Source of the DNA: Blasia pusilla
Lineage: Eukaryota
Assembly: GCA_050084515.1 (NCBI GenBank)
Contig: CM114271.1
Location: 11,222,001-11,286,000 of the forward strand
Direction: 5' to 3'
Length of the DNA stretch: 64,000 nucleotides
A model generated the notes under the pieces. The model did no database searches, had not been told where the DNA came from, and worked only from the letters and a program-made list of their open reading frames with translations. This document shows, one piece after another, positions 1,157-51,481 of this stretch (its first letter is position 1; every line of letters starts with the position of its first letter). The position numbers and the translations under genes were made by a program.

Positions 1157-1164
1157 TATTTATA
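1157..1164 (-). promoter_or_regulatory. Putative TATA box (TATAAATA) of the cargo gene
   Basis: Conserved at the same relative position at 31751-31758 and 61701-61708, upstream of the cargo ORF. Confidence 0.45.
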
Positions 1165-1249
1165 CTTTTCTAGCCGTTGGGCTGACCGTTGGGTCCCGTT
1201 GTCCTTTCGACCACGACGTGCCGGATGTTACGGAAGTCCGGACGTGAAA

Positions 1250-1985: not shown

Positions 1986-2114
1986 CTTCCCAAATCCGGT
2001 AACATATTGCAATGAATTGAATGTGTTCTGGTGGATCCATTGTGTCAGACAATGTCACCCACCGAATTCATCGTGTCAGTAAAAATCTGTCAGGAGTATC
2101 TGTTTCCTATTCAC

Positions 2115-2121
2115 TATAAAT
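2115..2121 (+). promoter_or_regulatory. Putative TATA box of the transposase gene
   Basis: TATAAAT about 50 bp upstream of the ATG, followed by (TTCTCA)n; the same arrangement occurs in other copies. Confidence 0.4.
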
Positions 2122-2166
2122 TAAATATTCTCATTCTCAGTCTCCTCCCGTTGGAATCTTCTTGGA

Positions 2167-6125: not shown

Positions 6126-6532
6126 GGATGCAAAATGAGGTTTTAGATTGTACTTTTATTTTTCTCTCAACCTTCACTTCGAGCTTGAACTCTATTCAGC
6201 CCTTGGCAAATGACAGATTTTTTCCACACCTTGGATGGAAAAAGTGATTGGTTCCACACTTATGATTCCCCTGATTTTTCAGTTTTCTAAATTTTGTGCA
6301 ATTTGCAACTCGTCGGACTCAGAGGGGGTTGCCAAAATATGGAAGAGGAAAAAAAACTGTGGGACTGCTTAATATATGAACAAAAAAGTGCAAAAAATTT
6401 CAAACAAAAAATTTCCTCTCTTCAACCCAACGGAAACTCTCTTAAAAAAAAGTATCTATTTCGGTTGACCTTAGTTTCCTCTCTCCTCTCTCCTCTCTTC
6501 CTCTCCTCTTACCGCACCTCTTGGCAGGTCCC

Positions 6533-9500
6533 TCGACAACTCAATGCGGATCCCTCGACCCTTCAGCGTACCCAAATCATGCATACTAAATGCAAAAAAA
6601 CTCCTATAACTCCTAAGGAATAGGTGTATCCGGCGCCGCTATGCTCTTGTCAACTTAGGGCCCATATCTGGCTACAAAGTCTCCATCGTGACTATGGTAG
6701 GACTCTTCGGCGCGGCTGTCGGTGGTTGCTATGGTGCAACCCTGTCTTGGACAAGAGAATTCTCATCTCCACGTGGAGTACCCGGAACCACGCTCGATGT
6801 TGTGGCTATCATCTCTTGGCGTACTTGCAAAACATCCCAAGAAGTCCAAGGATGTCTTTCTCAATCACCCCTGGTGTGTCAATCTCCTCGGATCTCACCC
6901 CCAGCCACTGCCTCAACCGTCTTGGTAGGCATGGGGCTCACCAACGCAACAGTTGTGATCTGTCGCATCCTCAAACGACGCTGCTCAGCTATGCCTAAGC
7001 TAAAAATCCATGTCAAGTAGTTCAGGTCCATCGCTCGACCCAAGACATGAGGTCGTGATGCCTCTGATAGTGACGGTACTACCGTTACACATATAGGGAA
7101 TCCCATCGCTCGCTCATTGGCGTTGGGCTCCACCAACCTCTGTACCTGGTCATCCCAAACCAAGCCAGGTTCGGCCTCCTGGAATGCATATGAAGTAGGA
7201 AAACTCACAAATATGGAAAAGGTTGCGCGTGGCATGCCAATCTTGTTGACCACAGTCAACGGCGGTCGATCATCGTGCCTCACTGCTTGTGATTGAAAAC
7301 CTAGATCAAAGATAGAATCCACCAAAAAATCTGAGGGGCGCTCCACGCTAGCATACATCCGCCGCAAAACCTCATGTGGGACCAAATTGGTCCACCAAAG
7401 ACGCGAGCGGTGTGCTCTAGAACCTACACTCGCCGCATCCAAAAACACGATTGAGACGATCCATGCACGCACCTGATGTGCACCCGTCACCACCCATGAC
7501 CTCAAATCGCCCAAGATCGGCATATTCTCCAGAATGTATGCTAGAGAATGGGACTGATGCTCATGCAAGTGTCACAAAATCTGCATCATCTTCCAAAATA
7601 ACCTGGACCGAGTGTCAGCTAACCCGCTACCTCATCCAACACGTGATTGGCCTTGACACAGCCAACCAACAATGACCAAATCTATGGCCCCTGCCCGCTC
7701 CAAGTCTTGCGCCCCCAGCAATGAAATATCATCCGTTAGGAAACTCTGGTATCCGTGGACAGTGGATGCAGACAATAAGTCAAGAAAATAGAGGCGTAAC
7801 TGTGCCATATGGTGAAGTGAAGCGCCCCTTGTAACATCATCAATCTCCACATATAGGTACTACTGCACGCGTACTCCATCCTGCAAAACAGAGCTAACCT
7901 AGTGCTGATCCCTCCAAAGAGATCCAACACCCGAATACCCTCCTCTCAGATGCGCCATACAATGGGTGTGGTATCCAAGGGCGTCATCATATCACTCTTG
8001 GCTACCTTAGATTCCTCTGACCCGTCACACTCTTGTGCAAAGGTCTCGCTCCACGCAGTCTGCACATGCTCAATGGCTAAGCGTCGAAGCTCCTCAATTG
8101 AGCCCCAAAGCAGCACCTTTCCTCCATGGACTGATGCGGCTACCATGACACTACTCTCCATAGAAATTTTAGGAATGGGAGTATCCTCTGCATGGACATG
8201 TCCCTCAATCAAGTCACTAGGCCACGTGATGGCACTGTTAAATGCTACTAAGGTCGCCAGCTCTCCTGGTCGTTGCTCGATCACTACACCTATGAATCAA
8301 ACGGGTAATGAGCTAAGGCGCCCATCACCTGATTTCCATCTTGGTCTGTAGGACGTTGACTCCTCCCAGTAATCCAGGGAAAACCCCATTAGGTATAACA
8401 CTGCTCCACCAACCAAGACGTTGTAGGAGTCTGCATCAGTCACTATCGCCCTGGCTCGCACCACAGACTCATCGGTAGGATGTCGCAGGAAAATGATCAC
8501 CACAAGCTCCTATCGGGTGATAAACTGAGTGGTACTGGCTCCACCCAAGGATGTCTGTATCCGGAATCGACAACGCTCCACATCGGCTCTAGTCAAGCCC
8601 AGTCCTCTGACTCACACTTTCCCCAACATCAAGGGTTGCGCTCCTGAATCCAACAAGACACGCTGCGGACTAAAAGCTCTACCTCATGTACTCACCAACT
8701 GTAAGACCTCTCCCCGCTTATCGAGCAACACAACACCAGAACAAGCCATGGAACGCTCTATCGCGGGTCTAGCCGGCATCTCTACCATCCTAGCAACCGC
8801 AACCTACCATGAATCTGACGTGGACGGCCGGAGCATTTGCTCCAAGGGCAGGTCCATCACCTCCTCTGCAATCATCTCTCAATGTGATGCAAGAACTCCA
8901 ACTCCATGCTCACATAGTGCAGCGGCCAACCGGAACACCTTAACGGACGTACCACCCAATGTCATAACATCGGAAGCAAAAAATAGCGGAGCACGCTTCA
9001 CCATCGTGGCCACCCCCAACATCGTACTCAACACATGCTCCTCATGAGCATCAGCAATAGGAGTCGTCACACTCATTTCTCCCATTGCCCTTTGTGCCTT
9101 CACACCAATAACATCATCTACTCTTTGGGAACTCTGATCAGGATCCATCGATGGGGTCCCCATTGCCTCGGACAACGTGAAAGACTAAGGAAGCATGGTC
9201 TGTTTCCTGGCTTGCCCTCGTTGCGGATCCAACTCCGCGACTGCTCCACGCGTCACAACTACGGCGGCCTCCATCCAGGCAACCCTCCAGATCCAACCAA
9301 GATCCTCCATATCTCTAGCTGCTCCATATGATGTCGATGCCATGGTTCCGGCATCAGGTAACCTCAATGCCATAGCGGAAATATGCTCCTGTAGCTATTG
9401 TATCTAAGCAGCCATCTCAGCCTCACCCCCGATGTCTCCCTCGATGCGTCTAGGTGATGGGACTCTACCTCCTCCACGGGCAACTCTACCACCCTGTCGG

Positions 9501-11560
9501 GAAACTCCAGCTCCTTGTCCCGCAACGAGACCACTTGGTGCACGACCTCTAGGCCCACCCCGACTGGCTACTTGCTCTGGTGCCCTCTCCGGCCCTTAGT
9601 CCAGACATAACTCAAGGTGTAAACTGAAACACTTGGGCTTGAGCTTGTGGTGCCACAGTCAACCTATCTTGGAGTCCACGTTGCTACACTGGTGGTGTAG
9701 ATAATCGTGACTGCTCTCGCCCAGAACCCATGGTGGCTACGCTCTCCTCCGCCATATTGCACTCAATGTTCTTGGTGGTCCTAAAAACATCTCTCAACAT
9801 AGGGGAGGTATTCATAAGAAGCATCCCCTCCCGCACTTGTGTCCGTAGGGTTTGGTCCAGCATCACGTAACATGACTGGATAGCCTGAGCCTCTGTCACC
9901 CCTTGAGTGACGTTGATAAACAAGCGCAAGCAAGTGTAAGCCTCACGCAAACTCTCACCCGGGTGCCTCTGGAAATCGTGGATGCTCCGTAACTTCTCCG
10001 TCCGTACCCCCTAGTAGCTCGCCCTCAACTCAACGAAGAACTCAACCACGAGGTTGAACCTGGGACGAACCTGACTAGACGGTGTAACGGCTCTAGTGCA
10101 AGTAACCCCTCCTAAAACATCAGTAGTGGAAGAGGAAGTAGCCTCTCCTGACTCCTCCTCCTCATCTAGGAATGGCTCCGTCCATGACACATAGTGTGGG
10201 TCATAGTAGAGTCGCCATGCTTCAATCTCCTCGGCATATCTGTGGGAGAACTCATGGAAATCATCCATGGGTGCTCCCTCTAAATGCTGGAACATACCGT
10301 TCCATTATGTAAATGGGTTGAACTCTCTAGAGTTCCTAGCCCGTTGTAAGTCACACCAACTCCTAAACTCCCCAATGAAGTCGTGTAGCTCTATGGTGCC
10401 TACAACACCCGAAAACCTATGCGGTCCTCTACCTCGATCGTCCATCTTGTACGCCTAATTGGTAGGACCACTCAATGTGTGCCATAGATCACTAGCACAC
10501 CCCTCTATACTCTCCCCCTCATCTAAAGATGACATAGAAGGAGATCGAGGTGGTCTCTCACTTGGAGACCCTCGAAACCTCAAACCACTCTAGGTAAACC
10601 CTCCAGAGCTACTCTCAGGTCCACTACCTCGCCTCTCAAAATCTCAAAAGGACGCCGAGATGGCCCTCATGCCCCTCTCACACGATCACGCTCAATCTTG
10701 CGAGTAATCCCTCAATCACTCAAACTAAACATGTGGCACTCAATCTACCCTCTCTCAATGAGACGTGTGTTGTGCGGCAACAAGCAGCGTGGTGCGGCAA
10801 ATCAACTGATCTATCGTCTCATCGACAACCATACTCAACTCTAGACATCCCACATAAGTCTATGTCCCCTAAAACCAGACTTCATTGATGCTTTCAGCAT
10901 CAGCATGAAACCCAATATCCCAAATAACTTCCCAATACTAGGAAATCCCTAACACGTGCAGGGCAAAGACCAGAATGGGTAACTTGACAACAAGTGTCGA
11001 TGTCGCTCCTTAGCAACTACAAACCTCGACCCCAACTCAATCGTGAAGATAACTCCTCCAATCAGCAAGTAGTGCTCCCGCGGTATTGAGGATGCTCAAA
11101 TCTCCCCGATGTGCGGTGTAGGTCCAATGGCACGGTGCGGCAGTGGCGGCACAGAATAGCTATAAACGGCACAGCACTCAGGAATGGGGTGAGGTTCTTG
11201 ATGGCAAACCCTCCTCAGTCAACAAAATGCAATTTGTTCCTAGTGATGGTGTGGCTCCGCGATCGAGACGGTGTGGTAAGGCCATGAGTGGCACAGCGCA
11301 GCAATCGGCGGCGCGTTGCGGCTACGGGCGTCACAACATGGTACTCGATCGTCGTTGAGCAATTACCAGTCACAACATAGCAAGTGGAAAAGAAACTACG
11401 ATCCCATGAATCCAAAAAGGTCACGCTATTGAAGTCGCGAGTTGATGAATGGCAATGACTCATAGATTCACCAAGTACGGTAGCGGCCGCCCTACTTGGC
11501 CACTCATGACTGGTCCTTGTCTTGAACAACGACAGTAACTTGTGTTGACGGCGGCAGTGG
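6533..11560 (-). mobile_element. Ty3/gypsy element carrying a C5 methyltransferase; truncated copy (gag, protease, DNMT)
   Basis: Collinear with 42530-47600: gag MFQHLEGAPMDDF, protease VLLDSGAQP, DNMT motifs. Cut off before RT by the MULE right end. Confidence 0.85.
7010..7945 (-). pseudogene. DNMT3-like cytosine-5 methyltransferase domain (degenerate)
   Basis: IRVLDLFGGIST (motif I), DLVIVGWLCQ (IV, P>L), YILENM (VI), LDAASVGSRAHRSRLWWTN (VIII), ERAMGFP (IX), HVLGRAMD (X). Confidence 0.85.
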
Positions 11561-21089: not shown

Positions 21090-21995
21090 ATGGACAACCA
21101 AGTGGATAGAATGGAAGTTCTCAAAGAAAAAAAGAGGACCTACTATTATGAGTATAGGAAAAGAAGGAAAGCACTTCATGATCAAGTTGAGCCTCCTTTG
21201 GTACTTGACACTTTTTCAACTACTCCAAATATGGAGATTTTGACTCTAGTTTTGACTATCCGAAGTCAAATCATATGGTATCTATCTTACTTTTTATATC
21301 CTCTCAAAAATTTTCATTGCTCATTTATTGTCTATTGTTTATAATATGCTAATTCTTTTTAGCCTTCCAATGCAAATGTAGTCTTGGTAGGAGAAAATCT
21401 AAAGATTCATCTTGGATCCACAGAGAATATTTACATGTCGCCAAGACCAATACTTGAGTTACCTCACCATGCACTCCATGAAGTTATTGAGAATTCTTGT
21501 ACGATCAGCCCAACTACTTATGTACCACCAAGAGTTGAATTACCTATTGATCTCCCTATTCCAGATAAATAGTTTGAAGGTGTACATGAAGTCGTTGAAA
21601 ATTATTTGACTCTTCCCTATCTTGGGAATAAAGAAATATCAAGACTAGGTTATGTTTCTTCCACTTGTAATGGAGTTATGTTACCTATAGAAAGTGCCAC
21701 TATACCAAATGCTTCTAAAATTCATCAGGCGTCTATTGTTGATAGGGTAGTAAGACGTAATATATTATGAAATCTTGCAAGGAGTCCAAATTTCCAAGAG
21801 AGTGATATTAGGAAGTTGCGATTACAAAGGGGTTTGAGTTATACCAGTAGTCGCCGTACGTTGGGTTCTATGGCACATCCAAAAATATGCCTATCATGTT
21901 CTGCCTTGCATTGGAAATGTGAAATGGTCAAAGGTATCAAGTTTAGTGAGTCACCATATGGCATGTGTTATGGCCATGGGAGAAATGTCTCCGTT
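21090..21995 (+). pseudogene. Helitron Rep/helicase N-terminal fragment (Zn-finger region)
   Basis: RTLGSMAHPKICLSCSALHWKCEM...YGMCYGHG matches the LGxM..CxxCxALxWxxE...CCxxG pattern of Helitron N-termini. Confidence 0.6.
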
Positions 21996-22950
21996 TTCCT
22001 GACTTGTTGTCTACGTCCGCCATTCGGGGGTTACGAGTTTCCTATCGAGGGACATTTCATTGTTGGGGGCACCGGACTTAGAGCGAGTAGGGACCATAGA
22101 CTTGGTCATTGCTGGTTGGCCATGTCAGGGCCAATCGAGTGTTGGACGGGGTAGCGGATTAGCTCACTCTCGGTCCAGGTTGTTCTGGGAGATGATACGG
22201 ATCTTGTGACACTTGCAAAAGCATCAGTCTCATCCTCTAGCATACATTCTAGAGAATGTGCCGATTTTGGGAAATTTTAGGTTCCGTGTGGTAACGAGTG
22301 CACATCAGGTGCGCTCATGGATCGGCGCGGCAGTTTTGTTGGATACGGCGAGTATGGGTTCACGAGCACATCGCCCGTGTCTTTGGTGGATCAACTTGGT
22401 GCCATATGAGGTGTTGCGGAGGGCTTATGCAAGAGTGGAGATTCCCTCTCATTTGTTGGTGGATTCTATATTGGATTCAAGTTGTCAATCACAAGCAGTG
22501 AGGCACTATGATCGACTGCCGTTAATTGTGGTTAACAGGATTGGCATGCCACGGGTGGTCTTTCCCACATTTGTGAGTTTTATTGCTTCCTATGCATTCA
22601 AGGAGGATGCTCTTGGCTTGGTTTGGGATGACTAGGTACAAAGGTTGGTAGAGCCCAACGCCGATGAGCGAGAGCGAGCGATGGGATTCCCCACAGGAGT
22701 AACGGCAATACCGTCACTATCAGAGGCATCATGACGCCATGTCTTGGATCAGGTGATGGACTTGAACTGCTTGACATGGATTTTCACCTTAGGAATAGCT
22801 AAGCAGCATCGTTTGAGGATTCGACAGATCACATCAGTTGCGCTCGTAAACCCTATGCCTATCAGGACGATTGAGGCAATGGCTAGGAAGGAGATCTGAG
22901 GAGATCAACACACCAAGGATGATCAAGAGAGACACCCTTGGACTTCTTCA
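21995..22950 (+). pseudogene. DNMT3-like methyltransferase fragment from the gypsy family
   Basis: DLVIAGWPCQGQS with intact catalytic PC at 22120-22125, YILENVP, GSRAHRPCLWWIN, ERERAMGFP. Confidence 0.85.
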
Positions 22951-35607: not shown

Positions 35608-38600
35608 GAGGTGCGGTTAGAGGAGAGGAAGAGAGGAGAGAGGAAACTACCTTCAACCAAAAGAGATATGTTTTTTGAAGAGAGTTTCCTGTGATTTAAA
35701 GAGAGGAACTTTTTGTGTGAATTTTTTGCACTTTTCTGCTCAGTTCTTAAGCACTCCCACAGTTTTTTTTTCCTCTTCCATATTTTGGCAACCCCTCTGA
35801 GTCCAACGAGTTGCAAATTGCACAAAATTTAGAAAACTGAAAAATCAGTGGAATCATAAATGTGGAACAAATCACTTTTTCCATCCAAGGTCTGGAAAAA
35901 ATCTATCATTTGCCCTTGCCTGAATAAAGTTCAAGCTCAAAGTGAAAGTTCTAGAAAAATGAAAGTACAGTCTAAAATCTCATTTTGCATCCTTAAAGTG
36001 GTTTGTTTAAAATACTTCGCACTTCTTTGAGGGACACAATTGGTTGGTGGATTCCTACTCCTACCTGCGACTCTCTTAAAACTACAAGCAACACATAGTA
36101 CATCTGCTTACAAGGGAAATACCTTTTGCCACTTGTCTCTCTTTGGACAAAGTCATCACATGAACATGTGGGAAAGCAACAGATGTGCACCACATACACC
36201 CTTGTGACACTTGAATTTACAGTGTTGTTCCTGACCCAATACATCCTTCATATTCCATTGCCATTGTGGACATCTTTTGTGGCGATGATCTCCATTTTTG
36301 CCTCTCGAGCTGATGCAATTCGCTTTGCTCTCTCCAACGTTGGCCTACACATTCTGTTTCTCTTCACCCCATTTCTAGACTCAAACAGAAATAGTGGATT
36401 GAGATCATCCACCTTCTGCGGGTACATGTTGACGTCAATCTTGGGTTGAATACGAAATGCAAAGGTCTCTATAATGCGAACATGCTCTGAACTTCCTCCA
36501 TCTACGAGTTTGAAACTGACACTTGTAAGATTGTCCACTTTGTCTTGAGTGCAATTTGTACCTGCGGCGATGGGCCAAATCGTGGGGGTATTCCTCGGAG
36601 CTCCAATGGCAGCCGGATAAGACTTGCGGAAAGCGCAAGATTCATTTGGATAGAAGAAGTACTTCAATTGATCCCTGGCCCTTGTGGAACGATCAAAGGT
36701 TTTGAGTCCCCAAAACCCAAGCAGTGGTCGTACAATCCTTCTACAGTTCTTATTTAGGAAAGTGCAGCATGCTCTCTTAATGCCATCAGATCCTGCCCTG
36801 CAGGTGGGTCCATATCCAGGGTTGCTCCGAGATATATGCCACTGTTTCCGGCAACCTGAAACAGTGGCATATATCTCGGATGACCAGAATCCCATTTTGT
36901 TGAACCACCCCAGTGACCAGATGTTGCGAACTTCCAGCAACGGAGGGCTTTTGAGATAAAACATTTATTGATTTTGGAGAAGTTACACCATCACGGATTT
37001 GGGAGCGATCCGGGGTCCTCGAATACCTAGGCGGCGTAATTTCCTCATCCAAATCAATCACCAGATTTGTTCCTTGATGGTGCCTCTTCACCTGCCTGAA
37101 GTCAAGATACTTATCTGGTCTCCACAAGTCTCGCTCGGACTGCTCTACCACCATCTGTATGGGACGTCTTGAAATACGCCCACAAATATCTCCACCAATG
37201 TGTACGTCTTGCTCGAGGGGAGTTCCTGCTACGCATTGATTGAAGGCTTCCACATAGAGTTTCTCATCACCCGATCTCACAGTCGCCCTGACATAGAGCT
37301 CGTAGATCGAAGGCCCCCTTCCTTTTGTTATGCCTTTTGTGAGGAAGATATGGGATGTTGTAGACTGTAGCATTGCTCTTGCCTGGTCTTGTTGGCATGC
37401 CTCCACAAGTGAAATTCTTTGGCATGCTTGTGACGACCTCCACAAGGAATGAACACTTTCTACTCCACTTGTGTTGGGGCAGAGGGCATTTTCATGAATG
37501 TTCAATCCCTGCAACAACGGCACTATGAGAAGGGAACCAAAATAGCTCTATGAGCAAAGAAAAAAGCTACATGTCGAAACCAGACGGGTTGCAAGTTGGA
37601 GGCATCCCATGAATGACTCTGTAACCCGATAGTTTCCGACGTGTTGCAACACCCAGGAACCACCTAGTGCAACCCGTCGGATTTCGACGGGTTGCAAGTA
37701 AATTTGGCCATGGGACTTGCAACCCGTCCGTTTCTGACTGGTTCCGCTCTCAGGCAACCCGTCAACCCATCTGATTCCGACGTGTTGCAAGTAAATTTGG
37801 CCGTGCGACTTGCAACCCGTGGGGTTCCGACTGGTTGCACACTCAGCCAACCCGTCGGTAAGCGACGGGTTGAACACTCATGCGACTTGTCGCATCCGAC
37901 AAGTTGCTTGGTTTCTTTGGTTTGAAATCGCTATAGTGCCTACGCTTCTCACCTTTAGCTGCAACTCTTCAAACAATTTTCAGCGAGACAAATTAGTGAA
38001 CTCACCTCCCGTAGGAAGTTTCCCCATTGTCTCATTTGTATAGTCCACCAACTCAGCCAAGAGCATAACTCTTTGTACTTCCCCTCAATCGCATGTTTCC
38101 TCCACCACCCATGAATTTTTTCTTGGCATTCCATGACGTGTTTCAAGGTTTTTCTGTCCTTGCAGCGTTGGAGTAGAGTGACATGCTCTGTCTTATTATT
38201 CTCCTTGATGCAAGATTTGGTGTAGCGGGTCACAGACTGTTGCCCATGGAAAGCATCCGACCTTTCTCTCTCTGGTTGAACCTCCCCACCCCAAAACACT
38301 TCATTGATAGCAATCCACCCAGCTTGTGCATTGTCCGCCATGAACCCATAAATTTCCGGAGTGGCCTTTTGTTTTCCTTCACCACCTCCAATAAGAGTAA
38401 CCAACACATCTTCAAACTACCAACGTCTTCTGCTTTTACTTCATAGACAAATATAGTTTTGAGTCCCTTCTCCACATGGTCATAAACATGAGCATCCATT
38501 GTCAACCATCCGTTCAGCACTCTGTATCAAATAGCAAAGCTTACCCAATTGCCGTAAAGATCTTCCCCTTCCCTCATTCGATCTATAAGATCGAGGCCAT

Positions 38601-38657
38601 TCGACAGACCTGTCATTGAAATTTTGAAGACAAAGGCCCTAGATCCTTCGCCTCCCT

Positions 38658-39428
38658 TATCATGCGCATACACATCGCTACACAACATACATCGCTGTCA
38701 CCGAACACACACACAAACACGCATGATTTCATGCTAACTCATGGCATCCAAACAACGAGACAAGAAGAACCAAAATATCTCCAAGAAAGTAAGATCCAAT
38801 CTCTCTCTCCACCATCTCACACCATAGCTCTCAAAGGTGTGCACTCTCTCTCATGTCAAACCAAACCCACTCTCCTAATGAGAGGCTTGGGTTACACTCA
38901 CAAGGCAAGGTACCATAGCTCCGCTGCCTCATGCCAAGAGATTCAACAAAGAGAGAATGAGCTCTCAAGCTCTCTCTCCTTGAGGTATACCCCTCTCCTC
39001 TCCCAAGCTCTCTCCATGGTAACCTATTCTCCCAAGTCACCTCCTTGGCTCTTGACCTGATGTAGGAGGTCAAGGGCTACTTACCAAAAATAGTAAGTCG
39101 ATCATATACTCAAAATGGTACTTACCTAAAATAGCAAGTCTCTCAATATGGCTCCAAATGAGCCAAAACGAAGGGGAAACCTGCTATCTCAAGTTTCCAA
39201 GGGCCTCAGCAGGTCACCCTCGACCTACTGGGCGTGTCCTCCACTACTCATGAAGCCGATCTATTAGATCCCACCGATCTATCCTAAAAGACGCGTACAA
39301 TTTGCCGTGCGCATACACATCGCTACACAACATACATCGCTGTCACCGAACACACACACAAACACCCATGATCCCATGCTAACTCATGGCATCCAAACAA
39401 CGAGACAAGAAGAACCAAAATATCTCCA
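38658..39428 (-). repeat. 3' terminal repeat block B1-A2-B2 of the gypsy element
   Basis: 38658-38785 repeats at ~39303-39428 (B, ~126 bp); 38786-39299 repeats at 48502-49014 (A, ~512 bp). Confidence 0.9.
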
Positions 39429-39610
39429 ATCGCCCCCCTAGCTGGTGGTTAGGTCCCTCTAACTCCAGATAGCCATCTATCCCTACCTACCATGACATAC
39501 ATCTCTCGGACGCTAAGAGCAAGAAGGCCGGGTGCTCATGTGGCCCCATCGTTAGTCGCCTCCTTGTCATCCATGTCATAGACACAAGTTGGAATGTAGA
39601 ACTTCCTTCT

Positions 39611-39765
39611 CTATGTACATCTGGGACACATCCATCGTCCCTGAGGAACCCTAGTGAGAGGTGGCGTCAAACATGCCATATGCCATCCTCTCGAACACCC
39701 ATCACAGACTAGCATCGTGGGCGCACCATGGGCGCGTAACCACACAACATACAACGCAAGCCTGG
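39611..39765 (-). pseudogene. PHD finger at the C-terminus of Pol
   Basis: CMLCG (frameshift) ...MLVCDGCSRGWHMACLTPPLTRVPQGRWMCPRCT* is a C4HC3 pattern. It is not in the supplied ORF track. Confidence 0.85.
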
Positions 39766-39879
39766 CAGGAACTACTACTAAGCTCGGATCTTTGTACCAT
39801 CAATGTTAGGAAGGTGACATGGCGCAAAATTACGCACATGGTCCTTCCATACCATACCATCGCGTCCCTCCAAAGCAAG

Positions 39880-40870
39880 AGAACACCCGATGGAAAAATG
39901 TCACGCACTCTCGGATAGTGCGCCTGCGATCACATCCAACGCCGCCGATCTTTGTGTCTTGCCGCAAATAGACATAATCTCCTTGATGAAACCTCCGGAT
40001 AGTTGGTCGATAACCACCACCTCGAATAGTCGCATACCTCAACGTATCCCGATGATGTGCAATCGCCAAGTTCTCAAACGCCATGGGCATCACTCTCAAA
40101 TAACTCAGCCCTCTCGAGAACATGCTCGCACCCATACATCTGGGTCATCAAGGTTCAAAGCACTCACACCAAAGATCTCGACGAATGGCCGCAGGTAAAT
40201 CTGGCTCTCGGCCATAAAGTAGCAAGTACGGTGAAAAAGACGCTAAGGATGCCTGCTGAATCTGTATCCCATCGCCAACCATGGCAACTGGAGGTCCCAA
40301 TCTCCTAGGTGACCTCTCTGCAAGCCATACTTGCGTAAACCCCTCTTCACCGTCTGCACAACTCTCTCCGCTAATCCATCCGCCTCAGGATGATCTCGCG
40401 AAGTCGTGCGGTGGTCGATCAGCGCCTGATCACACAAGGCCTGGAACTCACCGCGAAACTCGGTACCCTGGTCTGTCAACACCTCAGCTGGTGCGCCATA
40501 ATGACTCAGCACTCTGTCAAGGAAGGCATAAGCTACTCCCTCACTTGCTTTGTCAGGCAATGCAACCAACTCGATCCACTTCGAGAAGTGCTCGACCATC
40601 ACCAACACATAACGACTGTGACGCTCCGTCAAGGGCAAAGGTCATGCAAAATCCAAACTCCATCTATACCCTAAGCCCATGATCGGCAATGGATGCAACT
40701 GTGGAGTCGGAGCATTGAACAATGCTCGGACCCGATCACACACCATGCACTGGCAACAAATCGCTGAACGCCGCCTGCATGCCTCGCCACCAATATCGAA
40801 CTGGAGCAAGCTATACGTCCGCTTCACCCCAAAGTGACCCAACTCGTGGGCATGCTTTGCACTAGTCGTG
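39880..40870 (-). pseudogene. Integrase (HHCC, rve core, C-terminal extension)
   Basis: GHFGVKRT...CMVC, WSLDFA, VEHFSKWIELVAL, LTDQGTEF, HPEADGLAER. Confidence 0.9.
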
Positions 40871-41239
40871 CTCTCGCAAAGGATGCGGCTCTACGCGCAC
40901 TCGCCATCCTCCCAAACCCTCAAAACATGTGTCCCCTCCCAACGGAACCGCCTGGCCCATTGTCAGGATCCGATCCCGCTCTCTAGCATCCATGGTGCTC
41001 GCAAGGCTACCAAAGATGAAGGTACTCTAAGACTACTCCTTCATCATGAATATCTCGGCCACTTGTCGTGTCCTCACTGGCCTCGGGATCCAAAGACTCT
41101 CCACTAGACCTCGCCATCGAAGTCTCCACACTCTGGCTTTCCATAGCCAACATGCCTAAATAGGCTGACGCGTGCCATCCTGGCATCGACTCCTCATCAC
41201 TCTCTCCATGCCATCGAGCTCTAGTCGCATCTCGCTGAC

Positions 41240-42450
41240 TCGGGCATGGGTTACGACTCAACCCATCTGCATCTTGGTTGAGCGTTCCAGATCTATGTAC
41301 CACCTGAAAATCATACTCCTACAACAACAGAGCCCATCTCGCAAGCTTCCCTGTAAGCTTGTCGGACTCCATCAACTACTTCAGTGGTTGATGATCAGTA
41401 ATGATGGTAAAGGGATTGCCGAATAAGTTACACCTAAACTGCGCGACAGCCCACACCGCAGCCAAGCACTCACCCTCATACAAGCTGTACTTCGCCTGCA
41501 ACGTTGTTCGAGCGGCTAGCGGAAGCCACCACAAACTCTCTACCCTCATCATCATGCTGGGTGAGCACCGCTCCAAGCCCCAACATGCTCCAATCTGTGT
41601 GCAACTGGAAAGGATGCCCCCTGATTGGTCTCCTCAAGATGGGTGCGACGCCAACTTGTCCTGAGCAATCGAAATGCTCGCTCTGCTCATCCCCCCAGTG
41701 CCACTCGTGATCCACCTTGGTGAGCAAGGTCAGTGGCTTCGCAATCGAACTGAATCCCTTGACGTATCGCCGATAGAAGTTCGCCAATCCCATGAATGCA
41801 CGAACACGGCTCACATCTGTAGGGCGTAATATGCGTGAGATAGCCTCTACCTTCGTCTGCTGAACACCAAGGCCCCCTGGGTATATCGTATGACCCAAGT
41901 ACTCAATCTGGTCGTAGAAGAACTTGCACTTGCCTAGATGTAGCTTCAGCCCATGTAATTGCAATCGTCGAAACACCTCCTCTAGATGTTGCTCATGCTC
42001 CTCAACCATGGCGCTAAAGACTACGATGTCATCAATATAACACCTAGCAAAATCCAGACCAGCCAAGATCCTATCCATGACCCTCTGAAACTCAGCCGGG
42101 GCGTTCTTTAACCCAAATGGTAAGAACCGCCACTGGTACAAACAATCCTTCCCGTGAGGATCGATGCCCCAAAATGTCGTCTTCTGCCTGTCCTCCAATC
42201 TGATAGGCAGCTGATGGTATCCAGCTCGCAAATCCAATGAATTGAAGACCTTAGCGTGACCAATCGCATCAAAGATCTCCTCAGGGGTGGGCATGGCATA
42301 CCTATCGGACTTCGTCTGCCGATTGATAGGTCGGTAATCCCCTCACATCCGCCTATCCGTCCAGTTGCCATGCACATCCTTCTTGGCGAGCATGACAGTG
42401 GCAGATGCATACTCCCCATGCGACATCTCCACTAGTCCTGCTCCGACCAA
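41240..42450 (-). pseudogene. Reverse transcriptase and RNase H
   Basis: SLDLRAGYHQ, PFGLKNAPAEFQR, CYIDDIVVFS, LHTDWS, EGECLAAVWA, IITDHQPLK, NQDADGLSR. Confidence 0.95.
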
Positions 42451-43019
42451 GTCTTGGCTCCTACTCTAAATCAGAGCCCTGTCCATATCACTGTACTTGT
42501 AGGATCGTCGGAAGATCGGAATATCACTCGACAACTCAATGCGTATCCCCGGTCCCTTCAGCATACCCAAATCCTCCATGCTAAACGCAAAGCAGCTCCT
42601 ATAACTCCTGAGGAACTGATGTATTCGGCGCCGCTCTCCTCCTGTCAACTTAGGGCCCATATCGGCTCCCAAGTCTCCATCGTGACTACGGTAGGACTCT
42701 TCGGCGCGGGTATCGGTGGTTGCTATGGTGCAACCCCGTCTCGAACAACAACACTCGGCCGCTCTCCTGCACCAAGCGCAAACTCGATCTCCTCCACCAC
42801 GTGCCCGAAACCACACTCGATCTTTGTGGCTATCGGCTCCTTGCGTACCTTCAAAACATCCCAAGAAGTCCAAGGGTGTCTCTCCCAATCTCCCCTGGTG
42901 CGTAGATCTCCTCGGGTCTCGCCCCCAGCCATTGCCTCCACCATCTCGGTAGGCATGGGGCTCACCAACGAATCGTGTGATCTGTCGCGATCTCATACGA
43001 CGTTGCTCGGCCACTCCCA

Positions 43020-43970
43020 AGCGAGGATCCATGTCAAGCGATTCAGTCCATCGCTCGACCCAAGACATGGCGTCGTGATGCCTCGACATCGATGGTACGC
43101 CGTCACTCTGTGGAAATCCCATCGCTCGCTCTCTCTCGTCGGCGTTGGGCTCCACCAACCGCTGAACCTGGTCATCCCAAACCAAGCCAGGACTGGCCTC
43201 CTTGTATGCATAGGAAGCGGGAAAACTCACAAACGTGGGCAAGGCTGCCCGCGGCCTGCCTACCCTGTTGACCACAATCAGCGGTGGTCAATCATCGTGC
43301 CTGACTGCCTGTGATCGACGACCTGGATCCAGAATGGAATCCACTAACAAAGGGGAGGGGCGCTCCACTCTCGCATATGCCCTCCATAACACCGCATGGG
43401 GCACCAAGTTGGTCCACCATAGACGCGGGCGATGGGCTCTAGAACCTACACTCGCCGCATCCAAGAACACTGCTTTGGGCGATCAGGCACGCACTGATGA
43501 GCACTCGTCACGACCCGTGACCTGGAGTCTCCTAAGATCGGCACATTCTCCAGAATGTAGGCTGGAGAATGAGACTGGTGCTCCTGCAACTGCCGTAAGA
43601 CCCTCAACATCTCCCAAAATAACTTGGACCGAGTGTCAACCAACCCGCTGCCTCGTCCAGCCAAAGACTCGATTGGCCCGACGACATGGCAACCGGAAAT
43701 GACCAAATCAATGGTCCCTACCGCTCTAAGTCCCGCGCCCCAACAACAAAATATCCCTCGGTAGGGAACTCTGGTACCCAGATCGCGGACGAGACAATAA
43801 GTCGGAAAACGAGGCGTAATTGCGCCACATGTCGTAGTGAGACGCGCCTGCAACATCATCACTCTCCACATACAAGTACTCATCAGACTCGACTTTTCGT
43901 GCTGCAAAAGCAAAGAGCTAACCGGTGCTAATCCTCCAAAGAGATCTAACACTCGAATACCCTCCTCCGG
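43020..43970 (-). pseudogene. DNMT3-like cytosine-5 methyltransferase domain within pol
   Basis: EGIRVLDLFGG, IDLVISG(W)PC across a 1-nt indel, YILENVP, LDAASVGSRAHRPRLWWTN, ERERAMGFP. Confidence 0.88.
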
Positions 43971-44339
43971 GGTATACCACACAATGGGTGTAGTATCCAA
44001 GGGTGTCATCGTAGCACTCCCGCTACCTCGGGTTCCTCGGACCCGTCACGCCACGGTGCAAACGCCTCGCTCCACGCGTCTGACGTGCACATCCGCCAAT
44101 CGTTGAAGCTCCTCGCCGAGCCCCACGGCACCTCTCCTCCACGGAATGATGCGGCTACCATAACACTCCTCTCCATAGAAATGTCGAACGGGAGTATCCT
44201 CTGCATGGACATGTCCCGCAATCAAATCACTAGGCCAAGTGATGGCACGCTAAATCCGCTAAGGTCGCCATCTCTCCTGGCCGTTGTTTCGATCATCGCA
44301 CTGTGAATCGAACGGGTAATGAGCTAAGGCGCCCATCAC

Positions 44340-44740
44340 CGATCGCCATCCTGGTCTCAGGGCGTTGACTCCTCCCAATAATCCAGGAAAACCCCATCGG
44401 GTATAACATTGCTCCACCAACCAAGACGTAGGACTCAAAGATCACTATCGCCTTGGCGCGCACCACGGACTCATCTCAGTAGGATGTCCCGGGCGAATCC
44501 TCACCACGACCTCCTGTCGGGTGATATACTGTGTGGTACTCGCTCCACCCAAGGATGTCTATATCCGAAATGGACAACACTCCACATCGGCTCTTGTCAA
44601 GCCCAATCCTCTCAATGACGCTTTCCCCAACATCAAGGGTTGCGCTCCTGAATCCAACAAGACGCGCTGCGGACTAAAAGCTCTACCTCCAGGACTCACC
44701 AACTGGAAGACCTCTCCTTGGTTATCTAGCAACACAACAC
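44340..44740 (-). pseudogene. Retropepsin-like aspartic protease
   Basis: QRVLLDSGAQPLMLG; downstream Y[N/D]VLVGG...GF. Confidence 0.8.
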
Positions 44741-45039
44741 CAGGAGAAGCCATGGCACGCTCTATCGCGGGTCTAGCGGGCATCTCCGCCATCCTAGCGA
44801 CATGCACTGCCATGAATCGGCGTGGACGGCCGAGCATCCGCTCAAGGGCAGGTCCATCACCTCCTCTGCAATCACCTCAAGCGTGATGCAAGAACTCCAA
44901 CTCGCGCTCACATAGTGAAGCGGCCAGCCGAAAAGCCTCAGCGGGCGTACCTCCCAACGTCACAACATCGGAAGCAGAAAATAAAGGAGTGCGGTACACA
45001 ACGGTGGCCGCCCCCAACAACGTGCTCGACACATGCCCC

Positions 45040-46894
45040 TCCTAAGCATCAACAATAGGAGTCATCGCACTCGCTTCTCCCATCGCCCTTCGTGCTTGCA
45101 AACCAACAACATTACCAACTCTCCAGGAACTTTGATGAGGACCCATCGATGGGGTCCTCATCGCTTCGGACAACGTGAAAGATTGAGGAAGCCTAGTGTC
45201 TACTGGCTTCCCCTCGCTGTGGATCCAACTCTGCGGCTGCTCCACGCATCACAACTGCGGCGGCCTCCATCTGGGCAACCCCCCACACCCATCCAGGATC
45301 CTCCAGATCTCTGGCTGCTCCATATGATGTCGATGCCACGGATCCGGCATCGGGTAACCTCAATGCCATAGCGGCAATCTGCTCCTGTAGCTGTTGTATC
45401 TTAGCAGCCATCCCAGCCTCACGTCTGGCATCTCCCTCGGCGCGTCTAGGTGGTGGTACTCTACCTCCTCCACGGGCAACTCCACCACCCTGTCGGGCAA
45501 CTCCAGCTCCTCGTCCCCCATCGGGACCACCTGGAGCACGATCTCTAGGCCCACCCGGACCGGCTACTCGCTCTGGTGCCCTCTCTGGCCCTCGGTCCAG
45601 ACGTAACTCAGGATGTAAACTAAAACACCTGGCGCGTGTATGACCATACCTCTGACAATAGTCACACAGATAACCTCCTGGTGCAGCACCATCTCCTCCT
45701 CCATCTTTGAGGCACACGCCCATGACCCTGACGAGTGCAATCGCGCTGATGATGGGCTCCACCACATGACCAACAAGTAAAAGTAGGCGGCTGCTGCTGA
45801 GCCGCATATGAAGGTGCAGGTCTCTGCGGCACGGCCTCTCGGTATCCTCCCTGAGCTCGTGGTGCCACAGTCGACCTATCTCGGAGTCCACGTTGCTGCA
45901 CAGGTGGTGCAGACAATCGTGACTGCTCTCGCCCAGAACCCATGGTGGCTACGCTCTCCTCCGCCATGTTGCGCTCAATGTTCTCGGCGGTCCTAAAAAT
46001 ATCTCTCAACGTAGGGGAGGTGTTCATAAGAAGCACCCCCTCCCGCCCTGTCCGCAGGTCCGGTCCAGATCGCATACCATGACTGGATAGCCTGAGCCTC
46101 TGTCACCCCCTGAGTGACGTTGATCAACCGGCGCAAGCGAGTGTAAGCCTCACGCAAACTCTCACCCGAGCGCCTCTGGAAGTCGTGGATGCTCCGCAAC
46201 TTCTCCGTCTGTACCCCCTGGTAGCTCGCCCTCAACTCAGCAAAGAACTCAACCATAGGGTTGAACCTGGGACGAACCCGACTAGACGGTGCAATCGCTC
46301 TCCCAAGTGAGTGACCCCTCCTAAAACATCACTAGTGGAAGAGGCAATAGTCTCTCCTGACTCCTCCTCCTCATCTGGGAACGGCTCCGTCCATGACACA
46401 TAATGTGGGTCATAGTAGAGCCTCCACGCCTCGATCTCACATGCATATCTCTGAGAGAACTCATGGTAATCGTCCATGGGCGCCCCCTCTAAATGATGGA
46501 ACATACCGTTCCATGCTGTAAACGGGTTGAACTCTCTAGAGTTCCTAGCCCGCTGGGAGTCGCACCAACTCCTAAACTCTGCTATAAAATCGTGCAACTC
46601 AATCGTGCCTACTACACCTGAAAACCTACGCGGTCCTCTACCCCGGTCGTCCATCTCGTACGCCCAAGTGGTAGGACCACTCACAATGTGTGGCGATGTG
46701 CTCACAAACTCCTCTACACCCTCCCCCTCGTCTGACGATGACACAGAAGGAGGTCGAGGTGGTCCCTCACGTGGAGACCCTCGAAACCTCGCGCCACTCC
46801 GCGTAAAACCTCTAGAGCTACTCTCGGGTTCACCACCTCGCCTCTCAAAGTCCCAAACAGACTCCTTGATGACCCTCGTGCCCCTCTCACCCAA
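45040..46894 (-). pseudogene. gag with two CCHC zinc knuckles
   Basis: FQRRSGESLREAYTRL, CWSCGGAHHQRDC, CDYCQRYGHTRARC. Confidence 0.85.
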
Positions 46895-47789
46895 TCACTC
46901 TGAACCTCGTGAGGAATCCCTCAATCACTCATCCCAAACATGCGGCACTCGATCTACACTCTCTCTCCCCGAGACGGGTAACGTGCGGCAACACGCGGCG
47001 TGGTGCGGCAAATCGACCAGGCTATCATCTCATCGACAACCTACCCTCAACTCTGGACATCCCACACAGGTCTATGTCCCTTAAACCACATACATAAATG
47101 ATGCTCTCAGCATCCACACACCCAATATCCCCAAATAAATCCCAGAATCCCTCAAACGTGCAGGGTAAAGGACCAGAATGGGTAACCTGAACACATGTCG
47201 ATGTCGCTCCTCAGCAATTGCAAATCTGGACCCCAACTCGATCGTGGAGACAACTCCTCCAATCAGCAAGTCATACTCCTCCCGTACTGATGCTGCTCAA
47301 AACTCCTCGATAGACAGTGCGGTCCCAGCGGAACGATGCGGCGTTGCAGGCGGCACGGAATGGCTACGAACGGCACGGCCTCGATGGTGGGATGCGGCAC
47401 TTGGCGGCATACCCTCCTCAATCAATAATAATCCCACACTCTGCTCCACAATGACGGTGCGGCTCCACGATCGAGATGGTGCGGTGCGGCCACGAGCGGC
47501 ACGGCGCGGCAATCGGCGGCGCGTTGCGGCTACGGGCGTAACGACACGATACTCGATCGTCGTCGAGCGGCTACCAATCACAACATAGCAGCATGAAATC
47601 AAAACTCAAACACCATAACCGGAGGTCATCTGCCTTCACTGGTTGATGAAGAAACTGCAATGACGGTGGCAGCCAAAACAAAGTACGTGGTGGCGACGCA
47701 AGTCAAGGAATCAACGAACGTCATGGAAGACCCTCCACTCCGTAATGGCGGCAATGGCACCCAAAGGGTGGACAATGGACGGTGGACCC

Positions 47790-47905
47790 TTGACAGTGAC
47801 GGTTGACCGTTGATGGTGACGGCCGACCGATGACGGTGACGGTTGACCGTCGACGGTGACGGTTGACCTTTGATTGTGACGGTTGACCGTTGACGGTGAT
47901 GGTGA
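47790..47905. repeat. Minisatellite (~21 bp, GACGGTGACGGTTGACCGT-like) in the gypsy leader
   Basis: About 5 imperfect tandem units. Confidence 0.7.
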
Positions 47906-48501
47906 CTATGATGGCGACGGCCGCCGCCGGTGTGGCGGCTGATTTAGGGTTTGCACGATTTAACCCTAAGAATCGCCTAGCAATGGCAGCTTTACAAGAT
48001 TGCCCATAACTTTTTTCTCGCAACTCCAAATTGTGCACTGTTTTTTGCACAGCCTGCACAGCTTTACGATCTACGCTACCATCAAAAAATATTTAGAATC
48101 GGACATTTCAGTAAAAACTGACAGGGACTGTCGTAAATCCCAATGTCTCTTTCTCCTACACAAAATTCGGCAGCGCTCCCGCGCTAATTTCTCCCAACGA
48201 AAATGTAACATCTGTAAAAATACATATCAGCAAGCTACATGGTGCTCCCAAGAGCACCAGCATGGGGCAACCCGCCCCCATACTCAATCCCTATCAGAAA
48301 TTGGGCAGCGCTTCCGCGCGCCACTCTTCCACACAAAAAATCGGCAAATGCAAAGAGTAATGAAAGTAGCCCTTGCTCCGGTGAGCACTCCCATGAGCCG
48401 CTGAAAGGCGAACACGGTCCCCAACCTGCCAAAACAGCGAGTGACCAGCAAGCTCCCCCATGAAGCTCTCTCACTCTCTCATTCTCTCATTCTCTCTTTG
48501 T

Positions 48502-49014
48502 AAAGTAAGATCCAATCTCTCTCTCCACCATCTCACACCATAGCTCTCAAAGGTGTGCACTCTCTCTCATGTCAAACCAAACCCACTCTCCTAATGAGAG
48601 GCTTGGGTTACACTCACAAGGCAAGGTACCATAGCTCCGCCGCCTCATGCCAAGAGATTCAACAAAGAGAGAATGAGCTCTCAAGCTCTCTCTCCTTGAG
48701 GTATACCCCTCTCCTCTCCCAAGCTCTCTCCATGGTAACCTATTCTCCCAAGTCACCTCCTTGGCTCTTGACCTGATGTAGGAGGTCAAGGGCGACTTAC
48801 CAAAAATAGTAAGTCGATCATATACTCAAAATGGTACTTACCTAAAATAGTAAGTTCCTCAATATGGCTCCAAATGAGCCGAAACGAAGGGGAAACCTGC
48901 TATCTCAGGTTTCCAAGGGCCTCAGCAGGTCATCCTCGACCTACTGGGCGTGTCCTCCACTACTCATGAAGGCGCTCTATTAGATCCCACCGATCTATCC
49001 TAAAAGACGTGACA
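48502..49014 (-). repeat. 5' terminal repeat A1 of the gypsy element
   Basis: Matches 38786-39299 with roughly ten mismatches by eye. Confidence 0.9.
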
Positions 49015-51481
49015 CCCTGGCCCATGAACTGCCATCTCTGAATGAATGGAAATCTAGAGTTGGCCTTGATTCTAGCAATGGCATCCATTTCGGCCGTCTT
49101 TTCATCCAGTACCCGTATTTGACGCAGCAAATTCCAAAAGCATTCAGGATCAGCGAGAAATGCGAGATTTTCCCAGAGTTGTTTCTTATCACCAACCGTG
49201 ATCTCGCCTTGTCCAGGGATTCCAAGCAATTTTTCACAAATTTGTGATGGTGTTGTTAGCTTGATCACTCCGGGCTTTGAACCCGGAGAGTTTCTGAAGA
49301 CCTCGGCCACTTTCTTCGCCGCATCCTCCTTGATGTGTCTCTCAATTGCATCGATCACAGGATGATTCTGGGAGCCAACATGAATTGCGAGCCTTTTGTA
49401 CTCTAACATGGAGCCCAAGTCGTGGACAATGAAAAATATGTATGTTGGACACACTCACCGTAGAAAGGGGATGCTTTACAATGAGGACATCGATGGCCTC
49501 CCGGAGGTATGGTGGCACCGACCTTATATGGAGTTTCTGCATTCTTGGAGGGAATTACGACGTATTGACCTGCCCATTGCGCTCTAGATACGGGCATGCT
49601 GGACTTCTACACTCCAAGGCTCCAACGCATTGGCGGCGTGAGACAATCCAAGGACCATCTGGAATTGAAGCACTAGTCTGTTGAAGCCTGCACCATCAAT
49701 GAAAATCAGACTTTTTGTCCATACCCTTCAAGTGTTCTCCATCTTTCTTTTGAGCAGGAGCAGCAAGTGGAGGCAACTCAAAAATACAATTACCATCGTA
49801 CATGGGTGGCAGCTCGTCGACAACAATATGCTCGATCCGACCGATCAACTGAGGTTGACAACATCGGGAATTTCTTCGGGAAGTACAACATTGTAACGAA
49901 TGTGTGAAGTTGGAGTCGATGCCGGATCTATTCAGCTAGGAGTTGCAAACGTAGAGCTCGGTGCACTAGGGAATTCTCGACCGTCTACTTGGGAAACTGA
50001 GGAATTTAGAGGCAAGCCGTAAACTGTGTATTTACCATTTGCTAGAGGTAGGAGATTCCATAATTTACGGTCTGCAATCACTGGCTGGATTGTCTCACCT
50101 ATTATGTCCTCCGTACCGTCCATCCTAACATCCTTAGATACAAAGATGGTTCCAATTTGGAGAAGAAATTGAATTGAGAGAAAATTTTCATCCACTAGTA
50201 TGAAAGACTCACGAGCTTGCGGTGGAACAATTTCTGATTGGGGAAGGGCCGCTAGATGACTGCCACAAGTGAGGTTCACAATCAATTATCCATTCCCAAA
50301 AGATTTCACTGGGAGGAGATTGAGAATAAGAATGAGGATAAGAATGGGAATGGGTATGAGAATGAGAATGAGAATGTTCAATTTATAGTGAATAGGGACT
50401 CAAATTCTCGTGACAGAATTTGACTGACAAGATGAAGTTTGGTAGGTGAGATTTTTTTACATGATGGATTCAATTCTGTTGCAACTTGTCGCAGTCCGAT
50501 GGGTTGCAAAATTTGGGAATCAGAGACGTGGGTTGCGAAGCACCCAATTATGTTTTATGTTTCCTTGTCCCAATGCAAATTGGAAGGCGTCGAAGTCCGT
50601 TGGGTTGGTACCCCCTTCATGCTGACCAATGGTCTTTTGAGACGATTTTGCTAGCATCAAACACGAGACATCGCTTGCATTTTCTAAGGTAACTTATCGT
50701 TGGGGACTGTTACGGGACTTTCCAACTGAGGGTAGATCTTGTGACCGGTCGGATTGCAAGAGGTTGCCTCAGAACTATCCGTTGTCGTATTGTTACCCGA
50801 GGGATAGAAAAGAGTGCAACCTATCTGTAACCGACGAGTTGCCCAGGTACCTCGCCTATTATCCCAAGATGAGGGAAGCGTACAACCCATCGGCCTCCGA
50901 TAGGTTGCGCAAGTGCCTTGCCTTGTAACGCTTACATGAAGGAAGCGTGCAACCCGTCGGCCTCCGACGAGTTGTGTAGGTACCCCACCCCGGCTTGTTA
51001 TCCCAAGACGAGGGAAGAGTGCAACCCGTTGGTGTTCGACGAGTTGCGCGGGTATCTCGTGTTCTTCCCCCAAGACGGCGGAGGCGCGCAACCTGTTGGA
51101 CTCCGACGGGTTGCCAAGATAGCTCGGCTAGGACGGATGCCTCCAACTCGTCAGAGACCGTCGGATTGGTGGTTTTCACGTCCAGACCTCCATAACGGCC
51201 GACACGTCGCCGTTGGAATGACGGTGCGACCCAACGGTCAGCCCAACGGATCGAAGAGTGTAAATAGGCTAGGGTTTGCTCATTTTAGGTTTCTCGTTCC
51301 GTGATCTCGATTGCTCTCCAACGCAGCAGCGGACTAGATACCAAGGGGCGCTTTACATGGCAACTCATCACGAGACGATTTGAGCGACTCATCAAGGTGA
51401 CTCATCAATGCGACTCATCGAGGCGACTCATCGTGCACAGAAAGTAATTTCATTGTTGAGGAGGTGGCATTTTCGGGAATA

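Follow-up and report, generated by a model that had tools for sequence, protein, structure and literature searches.

Positions 49014-38658 (minus strand) of a 64,000-nucleotide stretch of the Blasia pusilla genome (GCA_050084515.1, contig CM114271.1, positions 11,222,001 to 11,286,000; the whole stretch is called the window below) form a complete Ty3/Gypsy retroelement, inserted within another multi-copy repeat. Its domains follow the order gag, protease, DNMT3-like C5 cytosine methyltransferase (DNMT), reverse transcriptase (RT), RNase H, integrase, and PHD finger. The Gypsy order protease, RT, RNase H, and integrase with a DNMT in the polyprotein frame is that of KnitGypsy-Dnmt3 from Klebsormidium nitens (de Mendoza et al. 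2018, PMC5890265; this source, like PMC2754532, PMC9940879, PMC6673714, and the preprint cited below, is used here from partial text), and the Blasia element almost certainly represents a high-copy Ty3/Gypsy family of this kind. The original prediction, made from the window's sequence, had stated that the concept was already known, which is the case, and had supposed a land-plant host. The genome contains a single gene for DELLA, a land-plant marker, in agreement with the latter. The family extends the KnitGypsy-Dnmt3 kind to land plants, and what is new in it is a fixed stop codon behind the DNMT and the combination of split ends with integrase-type insertion. The explanation that we find best overall, and on balance probable, is that the first open reading frame (ORF1) encodes Gag, protease, and DNMT, that the remaining domains are added by readthrough, and that the packaged DNMT acts on the element's own cDNA.

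Anatomy of the element

We read the domains from a three-frame translation combined with a Pfam profile search. The predicted limits, 38658 and 49014, proved exact: TG stands at 49014, the 3' end lies at 38658, and the same 4 bases are present on both flanks. The features are listed from the 5' to the 3' side of the element.

49015..49018, minus: 4-bp target-site duplication (TSD), 5' side; AGGG as read on the element strand, repeated at 38654-38657
48502..49014, minus: 5' terminal repeat B1; TG start at 49014, 98% identical to 38786-39293
46830..48501, minus: long 5' leader; short stretch of tandem repeats near 47770-47920
45938..46830, minus: gag, capsid-like region; frameshift-broken, weak Retrotrans_gag match (E 0.034), supported by tblastn with single-ORF relatives
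45620..45780, minus: two zinc-knuckle-like Cys/His motifs, seen in the translation
44332..44717, minus: aspartic protease with LLDSGA, Asp codon at 44654; Asp_protease_2 (Pfam) at the same place in relatives
42994..43970, minus: DNMT3-like C5 cytosine methyltransferase domain; unrearranged motif order, intronless, frameshifted in this copy
42717..42725, minus: in-frame TAG followed by CAA CCA, a putative readthrough signal of the tobacco mosaic virus (TMV) type, closing ORF1
41300..42700, minus: RT and RNase H (RVT_1 9.1e-31, RT_RNaseH_2 1.3e-9)
40249..40900, minus: DDE integrase, zinc-binding part and core (rve 3.4e-14)
39612..39760, minus: PHD finger at the C-terminus of the integrase (Pfam PHD 4e-10)
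39294..39429, minus: internal repeat A1 and A1/B2 junction; A1 97.5% identical to A2
38786..39293, minus: repeat B2
38658..38784, minus: 3' terminal repeat A2; element 3' end at 38658
38654..38657, minus: 4-bp TSD, 3' side

The TG start recurs in most of the 18 other copies inspected, and the zf-CCHC domain is present in the Klebsormidium and Closterium relatives. The reading frame ends directly after the PHD finger in 8 of the 8 copies inspected. The best single-domain PDB matches of the finger from a genomic copy include the PHD fingers of KDM5B/KDM5A, DPF2/3, PHF21A, and CHD4. A chromovirus would carry a chromodomain behind the integrase; the PHD finger stands there instead. We identified no primer binding site in the 5' leader, where no comparison with tRNAs was made, and Pfam gave no match for the two opposite-strand open reading frames (ORFs) tested in it.

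Identity of the methyltransferase domain

Two further pieces of the window carry this domain.

6529..11382, minus: second copy, of an older subfamily, truncated; leader, gag, protease, DNMT, putative readthrough stop (6722-6737), and the first codons of the RT region
21992..22948, plus: free DNMT fragment that lacks motif I but retains an intact motif IV (PCQ at 22120)

The second copy is 81-83% identical to the main copy, and the free fragment 79-81% identical to the other two. The original prediction placed a DNMT between protease and RT in two copies. This holds for the main copy, but the second one stops just past the start of the RT region and the window has only one RT core. The predicted motifs are all present: motifs I (43949), VI (ENV near 43555), VIII (AHRPRLWW at 43431), and IX/X (near 43130) lie in the main copy, and an intact GWPCQ lies at 22120 in the free fragment, but motif IV is disrupted by a frameshift in the main copy and reads GWLCQ in the second. 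All three copies match PF00145 (E 4.6e-4 for the main copy, 7.9e-5 and 2.9e-12 for the others), the match of the main copy falling below the curated cut-off and its second frame giving none.

Because the window copy is frameshifted, we used a naturally open genomic copy (L009) for the domain analysis; it has a single frame of 694 amino acids with protease and DNMT. Its DNMT domain (P0003) matches Pfam DNA_methylase at 3.8e-10. Its best PDB sequence matches, obtained with phmmer, are DNMT3A (4.2e-13), then 3C and 3B, with a bacterial enzyme and DRM2 far behind (about 2.5e-4). A fold from the single sequence reached a predicted local distance difference test (pLDDT) score of only 29, and we therefore used an alignment-based AlphaFold2 (AF2) model, which reached 90.7. 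All of the 35 Foldseek matches listed for this model are DNMT3 structures, the best being DNMT3A (1.7e-18), and the predicted fold is that of a complete DNMT3 catalytic domain. Profile, sequence, and modelled fold agree with the assignment to DNMT3-like C5 methyltransferases that had been made from the motif wording.

Motifs I, IV, VI, VIII, IX, and X are unrearranged, with the catalytic Cys, Glu, and Arg, as in enzymes of the DNMT3 type. Of 87 genomic copies, 79 retain the catalytic Cys and 82 the Glu of motif VI. The Cys is also found in 166 of 171 non-phage homologue rows, and homologues of 30-40% identity show almost no variation at the Cys, the Glu, or the two Arg of motif VIII. Phage C5 methyltransferases match too (27-32% identity, E down to 2e-13, in a database different from that of the PDB search) and occur among the Atlas look-alikes, so that an origin of the element's DNMT from a host DNMT3 appears likely but is not proven. 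The host DNMT3 was not located in the genome by a DUF3444 search, which gave only a DnaJ-like gene.

A fixed stop codon between DNMT and RT

Scored by crude anchors, DNMT and RT lie in one frame in 45 of 64 copies, the remaining 19 having indels or mis-picked anchors. Between the two domains we aligned the stop site in 85 of 88 loci: it reads TAG in 82, TAA in 2, and a sense codon in 1, and CAR-YYA follows it in 82 of the 85. Inside the DNMT, any given codon is a stop in at most 15% of copies, and ORF1 and ORF2 showed no further fixed stop (at most 7 of 20 copies at any position). The 16-mer around the stop has 1,966 exact matches in the genome and its reversed control none. The site is also found outside Blasia. 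We fetched 80 metagenome relatives, of which 74 had enough flank, and 57 of these 74 show stop-CAA-YY at the homologous place, compared with 8 of 216 control windows. Marchantia, Calypogeia, and metagenome relatives encode single Gag-protease-DNMT proteins of about 1,250-1,335 amino acids, which terminate about 105-170 amino acids past motif X.

In TMV, CAR YYA after UAG is essential for readthrough (PMC2754532). The element has UAG and CAR YYA with an in-frame ORF downstream; its stop and the six following bases match the TMV consensus, whereas the codon upstream is CCA in the element and CAA in TMV. From these sequence features we consider it very probable that the stop is a programmed readthrough site of the TMV type, which would regulate Gag-protease-DNMT against RT-RNase H-integrase. 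Two observations speak against it: most metagenome relatives read CAA CCC and then ATG instead of the full CAR-YYA, and an ATG lies 15 codons behind the stop in the Blasia family. Counted strictly, CAR-YYA occurs in 8 of 57 metagenome loci. Since most metagenome relatives read CAA CCC ATG, re-initiation is possible in place of readthrough. Because the fixed stop precedes the RT, the DNMT would belong to the abundant Gag-protease precursor and not to Pol proper. The prediction that it lies inside pol is right as to the frame, which protease, DNMT, and RT share in many copies, but ORF1 ends at the fixed stop behind the DNMT.

Split repeats and integrase-type ends

The repeats of the element are split: B (508 bp) stands at the 5' end and A-B-A, with A of about 125 bp, at the 3' end. 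The internal A/B junction equals the 3' end, 2 nucleotides, and the 5' end in 16 of the 16 copies inspected, and the A1/B2 junction pattern has 1,810 matches in the genome against 0 for the control. In 14 of 20 genomic copies with flanks, the split layout spans both ends; the others are truncated or interrupted. The B...A-B-A layout is also present in two metagenome relatives (L195 and L200, probably one locus seen twice). An ordinary pair of long terminal repeats (LTRs) with a nested solo LTR was rejected, as the split layout recurs in the genome. A solo B-A remnant was observed at L099-L100 (c99 2511-3139, joined view), as expected because recombination between B1 and B2 would leave one.

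The ends are TG..CA and the target duplications are of 4 bp. In 14 elements, 8 duplications are perfect, 3 have one mismatch, and 3 have two (copies c71 and c93 were read individually, and c73, with a disrupted 5' end, was left out). The host transposon runs uninterrupted across the insertion site in two other window copies. Together, the rve domain, the TG..CA ends, and the 4-bp TSDs indicate that a DDE integrase inserts an element with DIRS-like split repeats, and they set it apart from DIRS and other tyrosine-recombinase retrotransposons. The internal A1/B2 junction probably templates both ends in reverse transcription. RNA reads span both the A/B and the B/A junctions, in keeping with such templating, but could also stem from solo remnants.

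Copy number, transcription, and selection

The exact stop-site 16-mers put the family at 1,966 copies at least, which would be about 5% of the genome if the copies are full length. It is transcribed, mostly in sense direction. At 88% likeness, one copy recruits 5,386 of 10.1 M, 5,597 of 12.0 M, and 5,703 of 11.1 M RNA reads in three runs that carry the same species label, in all 30 bins of the copy, DNMT included, with about ten sense reads to one antisense, assuming a library of the usual stranded kind. The majority of the reads show 90-95% likeness to the copy and thus derive from many copies. In two of the three runs, reads pile up with one end about 300 nucleotides into the leader past B1 (L229:8910), possibly a short transcript terminating there. 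Some reads (14, 23, and 9 in the three runs) skip 1,071 nucleotides of the RT (L229:2180-3252). This skip was not seen in the DNA contigs; its ends are not splice-like, and a deleted copy is a more likely source than an intron.

The DNMT domain is under purifying selection. Between the main and the older subfamilies, the ratio of nonsynonymous to synonymous rates (dN/dS) of the DNMT is 0.23 with all differences and 0.09-0.11 with shared variants, the latter below the Ka/Ks of 0.2 that characterises the DNMT of KnitGypsy-Dnmt3. The RT gives 0.29 and 0.06-0.11, respectively, and the tail behind the DNMT 0.69 and 0.28-0.58. Inside the main subfamily, the DNMT ratio over all differences rises to 0.58, as expected from decay after insertion. 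The DNMT is also the most conserved part of ORF1 in comparison with relatives (about 0.6-0.7 identity, gag 0.38-0.58). Between subfamilies, synonymous divergence is 0.43-0.52 in the DNMT, 0.07-0.16 in the protease, and 0.16-0.27 in the RT (42990-43970 and copies L001-L140); sublineages may have exchanged the DNMT segment, with the caveat that the older copies were picked by their DNMT.

The family had been called young, and intact copies were to be sought. Stops interrupt 108 of the 122 best-scoring genomic DNMT copies and 14 are stop-free, L009 being open over protease and DNMT. Within single elements, B1 and B2 share 89-98.6% identity (1.4-11% difference). From these identities and the stop-free copies, the family comprises old and fairly recent insertions, so that youth applies to some copies but not to the family. 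In the window copy (42700-44830, L001), short indels number 21.7 per kb while substitutions amount to 5.4%, compared with about 2-6 per kb in copies that are 14-20% diverged. This excess is found in 12 of 86 copies and consists of indels of 1-2 nucleotides at low substitution divergence, which suggests long-read consensus errors in young repeats. Because the pattern resembles assembly error, the youngest copies may be more intact than the assembly shows.

Relatives and known elements

A homologue search gave 221 clusters (50% identity) at E <= 1e-30. The named relatives are from Calypogeia fissa, Marchantia polymorpha (annotated as Mp4g09160 and Mp8g17980), Marchantia paleacea, Riccia sorocarpa, and Sphagnum, and, among algae, from Closterium, Klebsormidium nitens (GAQ93235.1, P0240), and Scenedesmus. 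The DNMT is part of the polyprotein in all mapped architectures, which fall into three layouts: DNMT closing ORF1, DNMT continuous with the RT, and DNMT placed after RNase H and before the integrase, mostly with a PHD finger. The last of these is found in a large group (P0152, P0176-P0184, P0208, and others) to which Scenedesmus belongs, often with GWECQ at motif IV. In a FastTree phylogeny of the DNMT, the element joins proteins of Marchantia, Calypogeia, and Sphagnum (support 1.00) and P0240 falls among transposon DNMTs, the tree including 4 phage outgroups only and no host DNMT3. A quick RT tree, restricted to DNMT-bearing elements, also places the element with Marchantia (97).

P0240, which we take to be one of the copies of de Mendoza et al. 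2018, has zinc knuckle, protease, and DNMT in the same order and ends right behind the DNMT, in a partial gene model. KnitGypsy-Dnmt3 was described with few copies, its acquisition being presented as specific to the K. nitens lineage (PMC5890265). It shares with the Blasia element the Gypsy domains, an intronless and unrearranged DNMT3-like domain, purifying selection, and, going by the published description, a DIRS-like repeat layout. The Blasia element differs by its land-plant host, its about 2,000 or more copies, the conserved putative readthrough stop behind the DNMT, the PHD finger, and the 4-bp TSD; the word PHD is absent from the available text of PMC5890265, of which Fig. 4c may show one. 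SymbioDIRS-Dnmt3 and SymbioLINE-Dnmt (PMC5890265) likewise carry C5 methyltransferases, and the domains of the former methylate CG in yeast, but they belong to other classes of retrotransposons, whereas the Blasia element encodes a DDE integrase and gives no match to a tyrosine recombinase. The EpiLTRs of Cymbomonas and Euglena (bioRxiv 10.64898/2026.05.21.726589) are LTR elements in which a DNMT is likewise joined to a chromatin reader; the DNMT there is the sister of DNMT4 and is accompanied by DAM and a chromodomain, in contrast to a DNMT3-like domain with PHD. REM1 and Gypsy-7a_cRei of Chlamydomonas (PMC9940879, PMC6673714) have a PHD finger in a Gypsy polyprotein too but, in the text available, no reported DNMT.

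The REXdb survey text describes no PHD finger for land-plant lineages (0 occurrences). According to one review, land plants such as tracheophytes lack transposons that encode methylases, the loss having followed the transition to land (PMC6338049), and two later papers mention "streptophytes" only. In the literature searched, which excluded subscription papers, Repbase, figures, and preprint supplements, neither the element in land plants nor the readthrough stop is reported.

Proposed function and alternatives

We propose that ORF1 would be translated into a Gag-protease-DNMT precursor, to which occasional readthrough of UAG-CAA-CCA would append RT, RNase H, integrase, and PHD. The DNMT would be packaged at Gag-like stoichiometry, freed by the protease, and would methylate cytosines in the cDNA of its own element, inside the particle or the pre-integration complex. 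That this cDNA is the substrate has, in our estimation, a slight edge in its favour. New copies would then arrive pre-methylated, which could make them pass for host DNA, shield the cDNA, or reduce later expression in a haploid host. DNMT3A-type enzymes are slow and oligomer-dependent, so bulk production would suit the DNMT. The PHD finger probably steers integration via histone H3 tails; the fingers of KDM5 PHD1, DPF, PHF21A, and CHD4 mostly read unmethylated H3K4.

Several observations weigh against this proposal. In yeast, no methylation was obtained with the Gypsy DNMT of Klebsormidium, a result that the authors call inconclusive (PMC5890265). Some relatives have no stop, or have the DNMT between RNase H and integrase, hence bulk production of DNMT is not universally needed. 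The observed-to-expected CpG ratio of the element is 0.8, and transitions between its repeats are most frequent at CHG (0.155), then CG (0.089) and CHH (0.034); these values fit ordinary host methylation and bear no signature of the element's enzyme.

We find it unlikely that the DNMT acts instead on chromatin after integration, or in trans on older copies, competing elements, or viruses, with the assistance of a PHD-bearing partner and as a means of self-limitation or defence. The transcribed family, producing DNMT at the level of Gag, would have an excess of enzyme that is not bound to particles, and PHD with DNMT3 mirrors the pairing of ADD and catalytic domain in animal DNMT3. Benefits to the host and antiviral roles have also been raised (PMC5890265, PMC6338049). 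However, the PHD finger sits on the integrase, apart from the DNMT by the stop and by putative protease sites, and selection at the level of the element is harder to explain for a trans-acting silencer because non-carriers benefit.

A non-catalytic or RNA role of the domain, such as binding of cDNA or RNA, particle scaffolding, or RNA methylation, seems to us a poor candidate. Algal relatives often have another residue in place of the Pro that precedes the catalytic Cys (GWECQ), and the inactivity of the Klebsormidium domain in yeast would suit such a role (PMC5890265), but the near invariance of the catalytic residues and the predicted complete DNMT3 catalytic fold argue against it. Finally, that the DNMT is a passively carried captured fragment, or the stop simple decay, is very improbable: most copies are broken and the window copy has many indels, but the fixed stop, common to several hosts and conserved in metagenomes, a DNMT dN/dS far below 1, and a position and motifs alike from Klebsormidium to liverworts and mosses largely refute it. 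Nor is the DNMT a non-coding fragment out of frame with pol, the outcome that the original prediction had named as its refutation, since it is in frame in many copies and under purifying selection.

Other repeats of the window

The element sits in a multi-copy repeat (window positions 2-6521, 30304-38655, 49015-53164, and 60224-64000) whose copies are nested in each other. This repeat has a long ORF (4580-6244) that ends in a SWIM-like Cys/His motif and has no Pfam match; it is possibly a Mutator-like or other DNA transposon. A Copia-type gag fragment (Retrotran_gag_2) lies at 16340-16950, with related repeats at 16840-20626, 24762-26800, and 56399-57582. Tandem arrays with a unit of ~65 bp, at 29936-30231, 52757-53236, and 59402-60215, occur in another repeat family.

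Implications

Since 2018, what DNMTs carried by retrotransposons do has been an open question. A high-copy bryophyte family with related proteins in Marchantia polymorpha puts this question in a genetic model with methylation mutants, and the fixed putative readthrough stop predicts that DNMT is made in large excess over RT and integrase. The combination of split repeats and integrase-type ends implies an unusual replication route, and tools that search for LTRs would miss such elements because the repeats are split. The DNMT proteins of these elements can also be mis-annotated as host DNMT3 genes. More tentatively, an ancient clade of the green lineage (chlorophytes, Klebsormidium, Zygnematophyceae, liverworts, and mosses) might load its particles with active DNMT3 at the level of Gag. 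Its copies would integrate methylated, steered by the PHD finger and with an epigenetic state of their own, independent of the host's RNA-directed DNA methylation, and thousands of them in bryophytes would add to de novo methylation.

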